Source of the DNA: an uncultured bacterium
Lineage (GTDB): Bacteria > Deinococcota > Deinococci > Deinococcales > Marinithermaceae
Direction: 5' to 3'
Assembly: GCA_964402875.1 (NCBI GenBank)
Contig: CAYODT010000010.1
Span: 26,727-56,905 of the forward strand
Length of the DNA stretch: 30,179 nt
The position numbers and the translations under genes are program-made. Of this stretch, positions 16,608 to 22,344 are shown one piece after another. Under the pieces are notes generated by a model, which was given only the letters and a program-made list of their open reading frames with translations, ran no database searches and was not told the DNA's origin. Within the stretch, counting starts at the first letter, position 1. Every line of letters starts with the position of its first letter.

Positions 16608-17391
16608 AATCATGCGGCTCGGCAGGGCGCTGATCTGGCGCACGCGGCGGGAGCAGGGCCGGCGGCTGATAGGCCTGCCCCTGATCTTTGCATTGGCTCT
16701 CCTGGCTATGGTGCTCATTACACTCTACCTGCCCTGGCTACTCACCGGCCCTACCCGCTACGCACTCGCGCGCGCCGCGGAAGCCCGGTTCGGCACCAGC
16801 CTGGGAACCACCGGACTGGCCATGGCCTTGCTGTTTCTGCAAGGGCCCTACCTGCTGGCCATGTTTGCCGCCTACCAAGGCGCCAGTCTAGCCCAAGCGG
16901 CGGTGGGCGGAGAAACCTCCCGGGGTGGGCTCGAGCTACTCCTTTCGGCACCCTTTCTCCCACGCACACTCTTCCTGGCGCTGCTGACCAGCTCCCTGAG
17001 CCTTACCCTCTTCGCTTGGGCGATCATGACCCTGGGCAGCCTGGGCATTGCCGCCGGGGTTCTGCTGGCACTCTCCGTACCCCTGCCGATCTCTGCGGGT
17101 TACCTGGCCACGGCCCTGCTGCTGCCCTTACCCTTGGCGCTGTGGGCTAACACCACCGGGCTTTTCGTGGGCTTAGCCTTCCCGCGCCTGGCCCAGCTCC
17201 GCACCGGCAACACCAACCTTTTACAGCTCCTGGCGATGCTCCCGGCGGGGGCGCTCTTGTTGACGGCCACTCTGTTCCCGGACCTTAATCCTCTTGTACT
17301 GAACGGGGCGGCGCTGGCGCTGGGCCTGGTGGGTGCGGGCTTAGCCGCGAGCCTTCTGGCGCGCTGGTTCCGGGTCGAGGCGGTGCTCTAG
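16600..17391 (+). CDS. ABC-2 family transporter permease (6 predicted TM segments)
   Basis: It is a hydrophobic 264-aa protein. The ATG at 16600 has AAGGAGGAG 5 nt upstream and overlaps the ATPase stop by 8 nt. The ORF track start at 16504 lies inside the ATPase gene and is rejected. Confidence 0.7.
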   Translation: MREIMRLGRALIWRTRREQGRRLIGLPLIFALALLAMVLITLYLPWLLTGPTRYALARAAEARFGTSLGTTGLAMALLFLQGPYLLAMFAAYQGASLAQAAVGGETSRGGLELLLSAPFLPRTLFLALLTSSLSLTLFAWAIMTLGSLGIAAGVLLALSVPLPISAGYLATALLLPLPLALWANTTGLFVGLAFPRLAQLRTGNTNLLQLLAMLPAGALLLTATLFPDLNPLVLNGAALALGLVGAGLAASLLARWFRVEAVL

Positions 17392-17629
17392 GAAACGGCG
17401 CTCCGGGAAGTGTGTATCGGCCCCGAGCCTACCCAGCCCCCGGGCTTCACCTCCCGCACCGCCTCGGAGCTTGAACGCAGCATAGAAACCACCCCGTTTC
17501 GCGGCCATTCCCTCAGGCCCCCATCTCCGGGGTTGGTGGCGGCCGGGCGGCCCTTTTAGCCGGGTGCCCAAAACTGGGAATACGGTGCCTGTCCTTGCCT
17601 ACAGCGTCCCCTCTGGCTATAGTGAGCCT

Positions 17630-17725
17630 ATGTTTACGAAGACCCTCCTGTTTAAGTGGTGGCCCGGCTAAGCCGGGGCGTGTCTTCGTGTACCCCTGGG
17701 GCCACTGGTGTTCCGGGGGTTTTTC
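17630..17725 (+). promoter_or_regulatory. trpL: trp operon leader peptide (MFTKTLLFKWWPG*, 13 codons with tandem UGG-UGG) plus alternative hairpins and an intrinsic terminator (attenuator)
   Basis: The ATG at 17630 opens a 13-codon frame ending in TAA at 17669-17671, with the Trp codons at 17657-17662. Hairpin CCCGGC-UAA-GCCGGG (17663-17677) engulfs the stop. The terminator stem is ACCCCUGG (17692-17699) paired with CCGGGGGU (17713-17720), followed by UUUUU (17720-17724). GCCGGGG (17672-17678) can alternatively pair with CCCCUGG as an antiterminator. It lies directly upstream of trpE. Confidence 0.6.
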
Positions 17726-17745
17726 GATCTTCCTGGGGGTGTGCG

Positions 17746-19152
17746 TTGCCTACAATTGCGATCAAGGAAACCTTATTGGCTGACCTGGAAACACCGGTTA
17801 CGGCCTATCTGAAACTCTCTGAACACGCCGAGGTCAGTTTTCTGCTGGAGTCGGTGGAGGCGGGGCGCCGTTGGAGCCGCTACTCGTTCATCGGGGTGGG
17901 CGCAAACCGCATATTTCGCCTGAAGAACGGCCGGATGACCGTAAATGGTGAGGAGACGCTTACAGACAACCCCCTAGATTCACTGTACCAGGCCATCAGC
18001 CGCAAGGTGGAAAGCGGACCACGGTTGCCTTTCTGGGGCGGCGCGGTGGGCTACGTGGCCTACGACCTGGCGCGCAGCTACGAACGTCTACCCAGCGAGA
18101 ATCCCGACGACTTGAATCTGCCCGAACTGTTGTTCATCGAGCCGCGAGTGGTGGCGGTCTTCGATCATTTCAAGCAACAACTGCACCTGGTGGCCGCCGC
18201 CGAGGCCGGTACAGCCGGAGCGGTTGAGAGCGCCAGGGAGCGGGTTTTAGAAGCTAAGAAGCGGCTCTTGGGACCGCTCCCGGGAGTGGCGGGTACCCGC
18301 GCGGGCGGACGCACGACGTTCACTCCCAATATGAGCAAGGCTAGCTACCAGGAAGCGGTGCAGCGGGCGGTGACCTATATTCGGGCCGGAGATATATTCC
18401 AGGTGGTGCCCAGCCTGCGTCTTTCAGCGCCGCTCCGGGTACACCCCTTCGCCCTCTACCGCGCGCTCAGGAGTATCAACCCAAGCCCCTATATGGGATA
18501 TCTGGATCTGGGTGAGGTCACGTTAGTCTCGGGAAGCCCGGAAAGCCTGCTGCGCTCGGAGCCGGGTGGCCGGGTGGTAACCCGCCCGATTGCCGGCACC
18601 CGCCCACGTGGTGATAATGCGGCCGAGGACGCCGAACTCGCGGTGGAGCTGTTGGCCAGCGAGAAGGAGCGGGCCGAGCACGTGATGCTGCTCGACCTGT
18701 CCAGAAATGACCTGGGGCGGGTCTCGCGTTTTGGCAGCGTACGCGTCACCGAGCAACTGGTAGTCGAGCAGTACTCGCATGTCATGCACCTGGTGAGTAC
18801 CGTCGAGGGCCGCCTAGCCGAGGGCAAAACCCCGCTCGACGCCCTAGCCTCGGTATTGCCCATGGGCACAGTCTCCGGTGCCCCCAAGATCCGGGCCATG
18901 GAGATTATCGAGGAGCTCGAGCCTTGTCGTAGAGGCCCCTACGGCGGGGCCTTCGGCTACCTAGGCTACAACGGCCAGATGGACATGGCCCTCACCCTAC
19001 GCACCTTCGTTATTGCGAACGGGCGGGTACACGTGCAAGCCGGAGCCGGCGTAGTGGCTGACAGCCGGCCCCAACCCGAATACCAAGAGTGTCTTAACAA
19101 AGCGCAAGCGCTCTTAAAGGCCGCCCGTATGGCTGAGGAGGGGCTCGAATGA
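17746..19152 (+). CDS. trpE: anthranilate synthase component I
   Basis: [39 protein letters not shown] and LRTFV are hallmark TrpE motifs. The open frame runs back to 17656 through the attenuator, but no ATG or GTG is available after the terminator. A TTG at 17746 with GGGGGT 4 nt upstream is the most plausible start ([18 protein letters not shown]...). The start is uncertain by +/- ~10 codons. Confidence 0.85.
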
Positions 19153-19724
19153 AGCGTGTACTGGTGATCGATAACTACGATTCATTCACTTATAACCTGG
19201 TGCAGTACCTGGGTGAGCTGCAGGTCGAGCCTTTGGTCTGGCGCAACGATCAGTTTTCGCTGGCGCAGGTCGAGGCGCTGAAGCCGGACGCCATTCTGGT
19301 CTCCCCCGGACCGTGTACACCCAAGGAGGCGGGGCTTTCGGTACCCCTAATTCAGCGCTTCGCACCCGAGCTGCCCATCCTGGGCGTCTGTCTGGGACAC
19401 CAATCGATCGGCGCGGCGTTTGGGGCCAAGGTGGTACTCGCACCGGTGATGATGCATGGTAAGACCAGCCCTATTCATCACGACGGCTCGCCCCTGTTCG
19501 CGGGGCTTTCCAACCCTTTCACCGCTACGCGCTATCACTCACTGGTAGTCACCGACCTGCCTGATGAGCTCCTGATCACCGCCTGGACAGATGAAGCGGG
19601 AGGGCGGACCATCATGGGCCTAGCCCACCGTGACTACCCCACCCAGGGGGTGCAGTTTCACCCCGAGTCGGTGCTGAGTGAAGGCGGCCTGCAACTGATC
19701 AAGAATTTCCTCAACACTTTGTAG
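19149..19724 (+). CDS. trpG: anthranilate synthase component II (glutamine amidotransferase)
   Basis: [21 protein letters not shown], the catalytic region [11 protein letters not shown] and HPES are present. It overlaps trpE by 4 nt (ATGA). Confidence 0.92.
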
Positions 19725-19725
19725 G

Positions 19726-20538
19726 ATGAGGCTTATGGCGCTCGTCTCGGTCATCATACCCACCCACAATCGCCGGGCGCTGCTTTTGCGGAAGCTGCAG
19801 GCGCTGAAGGACCAAGGCACGGATTTCGAAGTGGTGGTGGTCGCAGACGGCTGTACCGATGGAACCGTAGAAGCACTTGCGGCCTACCCGGTCTCTTATC
19901 CCTTGAAGCTCCTGGAAAGCGAGGGCCGGGGTGCCGCGTACGCTCGTAACCGGGGGGCCGAGGCCGCTGCCGGCCAGATCCTGCTCTTTTCCGATGATGA
20001 CATAATACCCAGCCCGGGCTGGGTGGCCGCGCACCGAGCCGCGCACCGAGCCGGAAACGTTGTCGCGGTAGGTAGATTGGTACTGCCCGCCCATCTGCGG
20101 CAAGGGGCTGCATTCCACGGCCCCGGCGCCTACTGGTGGAACGCTACCGGCGCCAACACCAGCCTCCCGCGCGCGCTCTTCTTCTCAGCAGGAAGTTACG
20201 ACGAAAGCTTTTCCGACTACGGTGGTGAGGACCCCGACTTGGGTTGGAGGCTACATTCCTTGGGAGCGCGTTTCAGCTACCGGCCGGACGCGGCGGCCGA
20301 GCACTGGGACGAGGAGTATCCCGCCAACTTCCGCACCAAGGCCTTCGCGGCGGGGCAGGCGCACGTACATGTTTGGAGGAAGTACCATAGCTCCCGGATC
20401 TCTCTGGCGCTGGGGGTACACCCGGTGGTGCTGGCTGTAAAACTTGCCTTTCTTCCCCGGCTCGAGCGACTGCTGGGACCACATGGCAGCTATGAGCTGG
20501 CCTACGCAAGGGGAGCCTGGAAGGCGCTATGGAGCTGA
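19726..20538 (+). CDS. glycosyltransferase family 2 (GT-A fold)
   Basis: VSVIIPTHNR is followed by the DxD motif FSDDDII and is typical GT2. The start is 1 nt after the trpG stop. An alternative ATG lies at 19735. Confidence 0.8.
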   Translation: MRLMALVSVIIPTHNRRALLLRKLQALKDQGTDFEVVVVADGCTDGTVEALAAYPVSYPLKLLESEGRGAAYARNRGAEAAAGQILLFSDDDIIPSPGWVAAHRAAHRAGNVVAVGRLVLPAHLRQGAAFHGPGAYWWNATGANTSLPRALFFSAGSYDESFSDYGGEDPDLGWRLHSLGARFSYRPDAAAEHWDEEYPANFRTKAFAAGQAHVHVWRKYHSSRISLALGVHPVVLAVKLAFLPRLERLLGPHGSYELAYARGAWKALWS

Positions 20539-21368
20539 GCCTCATCATCCCCGCCTACCGGGATGCTGCTCTGCGGCGCAAGCTGGTCTCGCTGGCCGAC
20601 CAGACCTTCAAGGCTGCGCTCTTCGAAGTGATCGTGGTAACCATGGGCGGCGAGGCCCAGACTCTCACCTCGGCCTCGGAACCTTGGCCTTTTACCGTGC
20701 GCCTATTGACGATTCCGGAGGACAGAGCCAAGGGGCACTACCCTATCTCCCAAAAACGCAACTACGGCGCGCTGGTCGCAGAAGGCAAGGTACTGGCTTT
20801 CACCGACGACGACGTCCTACATCCGCCAAACCAGCTGGCTGAGTTGCAGGTGCTTTTTGCGCGGGGGTTCCACGGCATTGCAGTCACTGATTTAGTCTTT
20901 GAGGATCATACGATCTCCCGGCCCGCAAAGGGCCGGTTTGTAGCCTGGACACGGCTGAACGGCTCGCTCATGGCTATGGACCGCCTCACGCATACCCGGT
21001 TGGGCGAGTTCAACGAGGCTACCGGGCGGGGTGAGGACCTCGAGTTCGGTTACCGCGCGATGCGCCTAGGCATACCCATCCTTCGAGTACCCACCGCCCC
21101 GGCGATCCACATCGGTGTGCCACGAACCGACTTCGCCACCGGAAGAACCAGCGGTTACCAGGCCTTCACCACCGCCGAACGCTACGGCTGGCATTATGCC
21201 GCAGCAGTTGGCGTGCACCCCCTACTGCTTCATCTGAAAGCGCTGGCGGTGCGGCTGGGCGTAGACGCCTGGATCTTTCCCCGCCGATACCGAGCCTACG
21301 AACGCGGATACTTGAACGGCGCCCTGGAGGCCTATCGTGAACGAACTAAAAAAAGCCCTACACGCTGA
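20529..21368 (+). CDS. glycosyltransferase family 2-like (divergent)
   Basis: LSLIIPAYRD is followed by FTDDDV (DxD). It lacks the classic DDGSTD, so it is a divergent GT-A. It overlaps the upstream GT by 10 nt and is overlapped by trpD by 32 nt. Confidence 0.65.
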   Translation: MELSLIIPAYRDAALRRKLVSLADQTFKAALFEVIVVTMGGEAQTLTSASEPWPFTVRLLTIPEDRAKGHYPISQKRNYGALVAEGKVLAFTDDDVLHPPNQLAELQVLFARGFHGIAVTDLVFEDHTISRPAKGRFVAWTRLNGSLMAMDRLTHTRLGEFNEATGRGEDLEFGYRAMRLGIPILRVPTAPAIHIGVPRTDFATGRTSGYQAFTTAERYGWHYAAAVGVHPLLLHLKALAVRLGVDAWIFPRRYRAYERGYLNGALEAYRERTKKSPTR

Positions 21369-22344
21369 ACCGCTGAGCCAGGAAGAAGCCAAGCGTCTCA
21401 TGAACCGGATTATGGAGGGCCAGTTAACCCCCGCGCAGACCGCTGGAGTGCTAATGGCCCTGCGCACTCGCGGCGAGACCGTGGAGGAGATCAGCGGCTT
21501 CGCACTGGCCATGCGCGAGCACGCCGTGCACGTTAATGTCGGCCTGCAACCACTATTTGACATCGTGGGCACCGGCGGAGACGGCGCGGGCACCTTCAAT
21601 ATCTCGACTACCGCGGCTTTCGTGCTCGCCGCGGGTGGGCTCACCGTAGCCAAGCACGGTAACCGCGCGGCCTCCTCCAAGTCCGGCTCCGCAGACGTGC
21701 TTGAGGCCCTGGGCGTGAAGCTCGACCTGGACGCACATAAGAACGCAGGTGTCATTCAGGAGGCCGGCATCGGTTTCCTGTTCGCCCGTACCCATCATCC
21801 CGCTATGCGGAACGTCGCCGCGGTGCGCTCAGAGCTCGGCGTACGCACCGCCTTCAACCTGCTGGGACCGCTCACCAACCCGGCGGGCGCTACGCACCTG
21901 TTGCTGGGAGTATTCAGCAGTACCTGGCTACAACCCCTGGCCGAAGTGCTGCGCGCACTCGGTACACAGGCGGCCATGGTGGTGCATGGCGAAGGCACCG
22001 ACGAGCTAACCCTGGGCGAGAATCAGGTAGCCCTACTACGAGGTGGGTCAATCGAGGCCTTCCAGCTTGTACCAGAGGATGTGGGGCTCGAGCAGGCGCC
22101 GCTTTCGGCTCTGCGCGGCGGCGGACCGTCCGAGAACGCCCGGCTCACACGGGCCATTCTCGCCGGCCAGGAACGGGGGCCGAAGCGCGACGTGGTGGCA
22201 CTGAACGCCGGAGCGGGATTTTTCGTCGCCGAGTTGGCGCCAAGCCTGAAAACAGGTGTACGGAAAGCGGAAGAGATCCTCAATACCGGTCTCGGACACC
22301 AGGCACTCTCGCGCCTAGTGCGGCTGAGCAATGCACCGGCCTGA
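21337..22344 (+). CDS. trpD: anthranilate phosphoribosyltransferase
   Basis: GTGGDGAGTFNISTTAAFVLAAGG, KHGNRAASSKSGSADVLEALG and LFARTHHPAM are present. It starts on GTG with GGAGG 7 nt upstream. Confidence 0.92.
   Translation: MNELKKALHAEPLSQEEAKRLMNRIMEGQLTPAQTAGVLMALRTRGETVEEISGFALAMREHAVHVNVGLQPLFDIVGTGGDGAGTFNISTTAAFVLAAGGLTVAKHGNRAASSKSGSADVLEALGVKLDLDAHKNAGVIQEAGIGFLFARTHHPAMRNVAAVRSELGVRTAFNLLGPLTNPAGATHLLLGVFSSTWLQPLAEVLRALGTQAAMVVHGEGTDELTLGENQVALLRGGSIEAFQLVPEDVGLEQAPLSALRGGGPSENARLTRAILAGQERGPKRDVVALNAGAGFFVAELAPSLKTGVRKAEEILNTGLGHQALSRLVRLSNAPA

Follow-up and report, generated by a model that had tools for sequence, protein, structure and literature searches.

The classical example of ribosome-mediated attenuation is the trp leader of Escherichia coli, whose terminator exceeds the antiterminator in stability, the choice between the two being kinetic. 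Bacillus-type TRAP leaders are built differently, with 9–11 (G/U)AG triplets at a spacing of 2–3 nucleotides (nt) overlapping the antiterminator. Among thermophiles, an 'attenuator-like structure' was reportedly described by Sato et al. 1988 (BBA 950:303) for the trpE-trpG locus of Thermus thermophilus HB8. In Deinococcus deserti, 60% of the mRNAs are leaderless, and differential RNA-seq places the transcription start of the trpEGD leader peptide 1 nt before its start codon (PMC4007540). Here, we analyze a 30,179-nt stretch of DNA from an uncultured bacterium (contig CAYODT010000010.1, positions 26,727–56,905 of the forward strand; hereinafter the window) which very probably carries, directly upstream of trpE, a ribosome-mediated leader-peptide transcription attenuator controlling a trpE-trpG-(two glycosyltransferase genes)-trpD unit in a bacterium of the Thermaceae. 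To our knowledge, neither this element nor its T. thermophilus counterpart has been tested functionally. The assignment to the Thermaceae follows from the sequence of TrpE, whose best named relatives are those of Meiothermus, Thermus and Marinithermus at 70–74% identity, with one Logan contig reaching 95%.

A tandem-tryptophan leader and its alternative hairpins

The region between the upstream gene and trpE encodes a short leader peptide, the end of which merges into a series of mutually complementary segments (numbered 1 to 4). The elements that make up this leader are:

17630..17671, + strand: leader peptide open reading frame (ORF; trpL-like), MFTKTLLFKWWPG-stop, 13 codons, from ATG 17630 to TAA 17669–71; predicted to be leaderless
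17657..17662, + strand: putative regulatory tandem Trp codons UGG UGG, codons 10–11 of the leader; invariant columns in alignment A2
17663..17677, + strand: inner 1:2 hairpin CCCGGC-UAA-GCCGGG around the stop codon; found in the centroid structure and in the RNAalifold consensus, 93% paired over 15 sequences
17635..17690, + strand: outer 9-base-pair (bp) helix of UACGAAGAC (17635–43) with GUCUUCGUG (17682–90), extending 1:2; found in the minimum free energy (MFE) and centroid structures
17673..17699, + strand: antiterminator hairpin (2:3), 17673–17684 with 17690–17699; MFE −12.6 kcal/mol with the ribosome stalled at UGG
17692..17724, + strand: intrinsic terminator (3:4), 12-bp stem of 17692–17703 with 17708–17720, loop ACUG, U-run 17720–24

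A first-pass annotation of this sequence had proposed the textbook architecture of ribosome-mediated attenuation at this site, beginning with a 13-codon leader with UGG-UGG two codons before its stop and a hairpin enclosing that stop. Both are confirmed. The two codons separating UGG-UGG from the stop, CCC GGC, constitute segment 1 (17663–68) and pair across the UAA with GCCGGG (17672–77), with which segment 2 starts at 17672, to give a perfect 6-bp hairpin; the segment 1:segment 2 duplex amounts to −17.3 kcal/mol. In the ribosome-free RNA, a long helix spanning 17635–90 (−27.2 kcal/mol) locks segment 2. The outer 9-bp part of this helix has both arms identical in the above-mentioned 95% relative (locus L081), while it is absent from the other relatives and is thus a lineage-specific addition.

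The terminator pairs ACCCCUGGGGCC (17692–17703) with GGUGUUCCGGGGGU (17708–20) and continues into UUUUUCG. On its own, this hairpin has a folding energy of −18.7 kcal/mol, with z = −2.0 relative to dinucleotide shuffles, so that the stable stem with a U-run directly after it, on which the first-pass proposal leaned, is indeed present. No other terminator-like site was found in 17300–17900, and the U5 tract of this one is 22 nt upstream of the trpE start. Of the mutually exclusive pairings proposed earlier, the terminator stands as it had been named, while the antiterminator, then left unspecified, can be given here as 17673–17684 with 17690–17699. It takes up 8 of the 12 nt of the terminator 5′ arm, with a duplex energy of −13.5 kcal/mol. 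Taken as a whole, the 136-nt region folds no better than shuffles (z = −0.65), and ATG-initiated ORFs of 5–35 codons with tandem TGG number two in the window as compared to 1.9 ± 1.5 in shuffles. The tandem-TGG mini-ORF alone is, hence, not beyond chance, and its significance comes from its position and conservation.

Conservation and covariation across the Thermaceae

For comparison, trpE loci were gathered by a TrpE-based genome scan, exact-protein look-ups and a metagenome scan. The genome and metagenome scans returned 160 loci, mostly from other phyla, and contributed 5 new Thermaceae loci, with the rest coming from the exact-protein look-ups. The resulting comparison set, to which the counts below refer, comprises 15 distinct Thermaceae-type trpE loci whose TrpE proteins are 62–95% identical, the window included. 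In 15/15 of these, a short ORF ending in WW(W)-P-G/R/E-stop lies directly upstream of trpE, and the comparison of orthologous leaders thus finds the tandem-Trp ORF next to the stop retained throughout. The N-terminal part of the peptide, in contrast, varies freely: it reads MALSPALWWPG-stop in T. thermophilus, MVRTAQVKGWWWPG-stop in M. ruber, MLQVPFYPWWWPG-stop in Marinithermus, MKVLRSWWRPG-stop in T. filiformis, and MKFVSASAWWWPE-stop in a low-GC lineage (TrpE 62% identity). The three alternative helices and the U-tract are likewise found in 15/15 loci. Since the flanking upstream genes differ between genera, the attenuator moves together with trpE.

At the RNA level, segments 1, 2, 3 and 4 are mutually complementary in every sequence, with Thermus displaying three copies of the palindrome CCCCGGGG. 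In the low-GC lineage, CCCGG is replaced by CCUGAG, which is matched by CUCAGG, CCUGAGG and CCUCAGG in the other segments. Similarly, the segment 1 variants CCUAGG in Calidithermus and CCUGGG in M. luteus are accompanied by matching changes in segments 2–4. Because the segment changes follow one another in this manner, the apparently 'conserved' Pro-Gly of the peptide is explained as an RNA constraint. The RNAalifold consensus on a MAFFT alignment of the set (A2) consists of the stop-codon hairpin and the terminator. In the combined 1:2 + 3:4 structure 92.8% of the cells are paired and 6 pairs show compensatory changes; its covariation score was equaled in 0/500 shuffles, and the structure clearly beats registers slid by ±1–3. 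For the terminator helix by itself, pairing amounts to 92.5% and compensatory changes occur in 5 pairs.

From these 15 leaders we derived a covariance model (R1). It recovers the window at 61.2 bits (E = 6e-16), a score obtained by construction as the window is among its source sequences, and it has a single match site there. When run against 98 other trpE loci, 96 of which come from other phyla, it found nothing comparable, the best score being 21.6 bits. That best match, a weak one, is situated at about 153–330 of a metagenome contig (Ga0105107_10002778, L102) whose TrpE is 46% identical. It features an upstream WWW-containing frame ending in ..IWWWRGTHRERFTRR-stop, and a strong terminator, GGCCGUGGG..CCCACGGCC followed by U8, about 270 nt before trpE. 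It probably represents a Trp attenuator of another phylum that is independent of the present one.

A predicted promoter adjoining the leader start codon

A feature that the first-pass annotation missed is the leaderless arrangement of the leader itself, which is suggested by a promoter-like sequence immediately upstream of its AUG:

17595..17600, + strand: −35-like hexamer TTGCCT of the trp promoter; a TTGC-type hexamer lies 16–18 bp before the −10 box in 11/15 loci
17618..17623, + strand: −10 hexamer TATAGT; transcription is predicted to begin at A17630 or beside it

The combination TTGCCT-17-TATAGT is the only sigma-70-like site in 17300–17900, where 0.0 are expected in shuffles. Between the window and L081 both hexamers are unchanged, with most of the substitutions falling in the spacer. 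The TATAGT ends 6 nt 5′ of the leader AUG, which starts 7 nt after the −10 box and therefore puts A17630 at the canonical +1 position. The distance from the end of the −10 box to the leader ATG is 6–11 nt in 15/15 loci and 6–7 nt in 9/15. The window sequence 5′ of the leader AUG shows no Shine-Dalgarno sequence. Since a conserved −10 box adjoins the AUG and no Shine-Dalgarno is found, we predict that the leader peptide is probably translated from a leaderless, or 2–4-nt-leadered, mRNA. The trpEGD leader of D. deserti, a member of the sister order, provides a direct precedent for such a start.

Longer versions of the leader ORF were considered and rejected, namely one starting from GTG 17564 and a 90-amino-acid (aa) one called in L081. 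In either, the promoter would sit inside the ORF; an indel of 1 nt, situated upstream of the leader ORF, shifts the upstream frame in the window relative to L081; and the other genera do not conserve the N-terminal extension. The 13-codon ORF proper differs between the two by just one synonymous and one K-to-R change. The L081 version stems from a public gene call (1108–1380) that fuses the 13-codon leader into a 90-aa 'protein' extending upstream through the promoter, and is an annotation artefact of the kind that such leaders can cause.

Further upstream, at 17527–17560 of the window, lies a segment, GGTTGGTGGCGGCCGGGCGGCCCTTTTAGCCGGG, that resembles the leader end (TGGTGGC..CCGG..TAAGCCGGG) about 100 nt ahead of it and in the same reading frame (..RGWWRPGGPFS..). 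It is conserved in L081, has no start codon, is not matched by R1 and folds unremarkably; it may be what is left of a duplicated leader, or else belong to the terminator of the upstream operon. A structured element sought more widely in 17392–17575 was not apparent, with folding in that interval being unremarkable (z = 0.40).

A proposed kinetic switch between terminator and antiterminator

To model the action of the ribosome, the RNA was masked to a point 10–13 nt past the first base of the codon in the A site, the usual reach of the ribosome footprint. The moment of decision was represented by a co-transcriptional truncation model, in which the RNA is cut just before the 3′ arm of the terminator. 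For the window, the probability that the terminator 5′ arm is held by upstream nt in this model is as follows:

UGG in the A site: 0.65–0.88
ribosome on the stop codon: 0.09–0.42
no ribosome: 0.09

The stalled-state value exceeds the stop-codon value in 15/15 sequences, at both 37 and 60 °C. In silico, the leader thus obeys the classical logic, with starvation leading to read-through and either sufficiency or absence of translation leading to termination.

On this basis, we propose the following sequence of events. Transcription would start from TTGCCT-17-TATAGT at or next to A17630, placing the leader ORF at the very 5′ end of the RNA, and a ribosome would translate it while RNA polymerase proceeds. 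If charged tRNA-Trp is plentiful, the ribosome would pass UGG-UGG, reach the UAA at 17669 and cover segment 2 (17672 to about 17682); the free segment 3 (17692–17703) could then pair with segment 4 (17708–17720), and the hairpin together with U5 would stop transcription near 17722–26. If tRNA-Trp is scarce, the ribosome would instead stall with UGG in the A site, covering the RNA only to about 17669–72, and 17673–84 would pair with 17690–99 before segment 4 is made, thereby blocking the terminator and allowing the polymerase to enter trpE. In the absence of translation, the long 1:2 helix (17635–90) would lock segment 2 and the terminator would form.

Several observations weigh against this reading. 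At equilibrium the terminator (−18 to −20 kcal/mol) beats the antiterminator (−12.6 to −13.5 kcal/mol) in every ribosome state, the probability of the terminator in the window being 0.71–0.94 across these states. When the whole leader is folded in the equilibrium model, many relatives switch as expected, while in the window and L081 the terminator wins throughout. This alone is no refutation, since in E. coli, too, the terminator is the stabler structure and the choice is kinetic. Equilibrium masked folding, which gives no switch for these two, was hence replaced as a switch model by the truncation model; because the terminator wins at equilibrium, the switch would work only if it is kinetic, i.e., co-transcriptional. 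A second such observation concerns the antiterminator, which column-wise on the MAFFT alignment is 79% paired, with 203/500 shuffles and the +1 slide being as good. We attribute this to C4G4-type blocks that pair in several registers and to the misalignment of one sequence (L171). The column-wise count was replaced by an alignment-free test comparing cognate with non-cognate segment duplexes over 5000 permutations. Here, cognate 2:3 duplexes average −19.9 kcal/mol as compared to −16.7 kcal/mol for non-cognate ones (3.2 better), and 0/5000 permutations were as good; for the other helices the corresponding counts are 0/5000 (3:4) and 85/5000 (1:2). The two halves of the antiterminator co-evolve, even though the cognate 2:3 advantage of the window itself is just −0.4 kcal/mol. 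Beyond these, the U-run is short (5 U), and without a Shine-Dalgarno the translation of the leader depends on a predicted leaderless start.

Finally, no Rfam model matches. No family reaches its gathering score across the window, and at E ≤ 10 the interval 17400–17900 yields only two chance matches to long non-coding RNA models and no RF00513; the comparison with known trp-leader models, which the first-pass annotation had suggested, is thus negative. This bears on family membership and not on mechanism. As for other regulatory leaders, no T-box match was found with Rfam, be it over the window or at E ≤ 10 in 17400–17900, and no GAG or UAG triplet of the TRAP-type (G/U)AG repeats occurs in 17630–17745. 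On balance, the earlier proposal of textbook ribosome-mediated attenuation is supported by the terminator, the conserved leader, covariation, the cognate test and the footprint modelling.

The trpE start and the genes behind the attenuator

Downstream of the terminator, the following features were identified:

17735..17741, + strand: Shine-Dalgarno-like GGGGGUG for trpE, read from the sequence; 4 nt before TTG 17746
17746..19152, + strand: trpE (anthranilate synthase component I), TTG start; TIGR00564 538.6 bits against a cutoff of 517.7
19149..19724, + strand: trpG (glutamine amidotransferase component II), overlapping the trpE stop; TIGR00566 238 bits
19726..21368, + strand: two family-2 glycosyltransferase genes (19726–20538 and 20529–21368), between trpG and trpD
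21337..22344, + strand: trpD (anthranilate phosphoribosyltransferase), last gene of the packed unit; TIGR01245 395 bits

The TTG at 17746 had been put forward in the first-pass annotation as the probable trpE start. It is supported by the TIGR00564 match, the alignment of which starts at residue 42 of the maximal trpE ORF, and by homologue lengths: the in-frame TTG gives a 468-aa product, the 95% identical homologue in L081 is also 468 aa, being called from the homologous TTG, and other TrpE homologues have 460–474 aa. The accompanying statement that no usable ATG or GTG lies upstream needs qualification as in-frame GTGs do exist (17656, 17659 and 17680); these, however, lie inside the leader ORF or the attenuator. 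The Shine-Dalgarno-like motif is part of CCUGGGGGUGU (17732–17742), a near copy of terminator segment 4 whose pairing could sequester the Shine-Dalgarno in read-through RNA.

Within the trpE-to-trpD unit, neighboring genes either overlap or are 1 nt apart. The glycosyltransferase insertion is also seen in Marinithermus, Meiothermus and the 95% relative (L081 3445–5147, L083 3490–4407, L084 3772–4416, L090 3532–4398), and a Trueperaceae-like contig (L088 3533–4437) has a family-2 glycosyltransferase gene after trpG, while Thermus shows trpE-trpG-trpD without glycosyltransferase genes. Behind the same attenuator, other genes are inserted between trpE and trpG: a CM_2 chorismate-mutase-domain ORF in an M. 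ruber-type locus (L084 2913–3182), and a class-Ib aminoacyl-tRNA-synthetase gene (tRNA-synt_1b) similar in size to TrpRS/TyrRS in Calidithermus terrae (L085 3005–4009).

Alternative explanations

The alternative that survives best, albeit an improbable one, is that the RNA acts mainly on translation. Here, the terminator arm 17690–99 would pair with the Shine-Dalgarno-like CCUGGGGGUGU of trpE in the read-through RNA, and leader translation or folding would tune trpE translation instead of, or besides, termination. The full-length MFE structure indeed pairs 17690–99 with 17733–42, and G-rich Shine-Dalgarno sequences along with C4 blocks are also found in relatives, e.g., T. thermophilus (GGGGGA). 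However, most relatives have an AGGAGG-type Shine-Dalgarno that is not complementary to segment 3, whereas the hairpin and U-run, which resemble a true intrinsic terminator, are found in 15/15 loci. Moreover, translational control of this kind would be compatible with attenuation rather than exclusive of it.

Less probable still, and in our estimate very unlikely, is that the WW-Pro-Gly-stop peptide is itself the sensor, undergoing a TnaC-like nascent-peptide arrest at the stop in response to free tryptophan. The presence of Trp-Trp-(x)-Pro next to the stop in 15/15 leaders is in line with such a role, as is the slowing of peptide release that Pro and Gly residues close to the C-terminus cause in E. 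coli. Against it, G, R or E can follow the Pro, and the Pro/Gly codons vary exactly so as to keep the 1:2 pairing (CCCGGA, CCUAGG, CCUGAG, CCUGGG), which means that RNA pairing explains their conservation. Further, a ribosome arrested on the stop would keep segment 2 masked and promote termination at high Trp; as this acts in the classical direction, peptide sensing would refine the classical attenuation model and not replace it.

The least probable alternative, namely a chance ORF beside a constitutive or upstream-operon terminator, with trpE being regulated otherwise (by a repressor, a TRAP-like protein, a T-box or Rho), can point to the approximately two small tandem-TGG ATG ORFs expected per window, the unremarkable folding of the whole region and the want of a curated RNA family match, but is already contradicted by the conservation of the ORF end, the hairpin distance and the promoter position across genera (62–74% TrpE identity) with differing flanking genes, as well as by the above-noted lack of T-box matches and GAG/UAG triplets and by the upstream gene ending at 17391, 240 nt before the ORF, with the promoter between them.

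Implications

The attenuation reading leaves the textbook picture unchanged, and the locus is an ordinary but well-conserved example of a Trp switch. Of note are the predicted leaderless arrangement, the absence of a curated family model and the covariation data; the orthologous T. thermophilus element was reportedly noted in 1988. The analysis fixes the annotation of the locus, with a trpE start at TTG 17746, a 13-codon leader gene that had gone unannotated, a promoter and a regulatory terminator, and it illustrates how gene callers can mis-extend such leader ORFs, as in the 90-aa 'protein' of the 95% relative. It also documents, from 15 sequences, a trp attenuator conserved in the Thermaceae, which Rfam lacks and which is predicted to lie at the transcript 5′ end. 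As such, the attenuator offers a compact natural setting for testing leaderless translation-transcription coupling at high temperature.

A bolder proposition, which we regard as rather doubtful though not far-fetched, is that the Thermaceae, and perhaps the Deinococcota generally, use a distinct 'leaderless attenuator' in which the ribosome loads, without a Shine-Dalgarno, on the 5′-terminal AUG as the RNA emerges. The Trp-Trp-Pro-x-stop ending would then play a dual role, forming segment 1 on the one hand, and, as a slow-release peptide end, parking the ribosome over segment 2 on the other. If true, leaderless loading and slow release would stand in for the pause-and-synchronise step known from E. 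coli.

Comparison with known systems

Like the Sinorhizobium meliloti trpL/rnTrpL system, the element in the window is a ribosome-dependent Trp attenuator before a split-off trpE(G) unit; unlike in the window, the S. meliloti trpL has a Shine-Dalgarno. Its released attenuator RNA and peptide act in trans (PMC6614838, PMC7298713), a behavior that nothing in the window suggests. With the D. deserti trpEGD leader it shares the phylum and the operon head (PMC4007540). Loci of the Deinococcales or Trueperaceae type (L087 and L088) differ in having another peptide with two separated Trp residues (..SW.GA.GRW..) and no obvious U-run, and they are not matched by the Thermaceae model R1. At about 1385–1445 in both, a short ORF directly follows a TATACT box: it is MISPHSWTGALGRWLARA-stop in L087 and MTVLPSWIGAFGRWRRAVA-stop in L088, with SW.GA.GRW being common to the two and no U-run terminator coming after it. 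These may represent a second, unrelated type of leaderless trp leader in the phylum.

The resemblance to E. coli trpL (Yanofsky 1981) extends over the whole architecture: a short leader, of 14 aa in E. coli and 13 aa in the window, whose codons 10–11 both specify Trp; the 1:2 hairpin, followed by the antiterminator (2:3) and the terminator (3:4) with a U-run directly before trpE; and a terminator more stable than the antiterminator, which implies a kinetic choice, with termination predicted when the leader is not translated. The differences are equally clear. There is no similarity to RF00513, either by covariance model or by sequence (E ≤ 10). The leader has no Shine-Dalgarno, its AUG lying 7 nt after the −10 box with leaderless translation predicted; the stop comes two codons after the Trp pair (three in E. 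coli), and segment 1 consists of the Pro-Gly codons themselves. Segments 2–4 are near-repeats of a palindromic C4G4-type block, and the unit is trpE-trpG-GT-GT-trpD (GT, glycosyltransferase), not a full trpEDCBA operon.

The T. thermophilus locus (L082), in contrast, carries the orthologous element: a TATCCT box, 6 nt, the ATG, the 11-aa peptide MALSPALWWPG-stop, three CCCCGGGG blocks and a U-run, and in our models it shows the same footprint-dependent switch as the window. Relative to it, the leader in the window is longer (13 aa), with an unrelated N-terminal sequence, and its lineage adds the 9-bp outer helix (17635–43 with 17682–90); moreover, trpE has a TTG start in the window, where two glycosyltransferase genes separate trpG from trpD.

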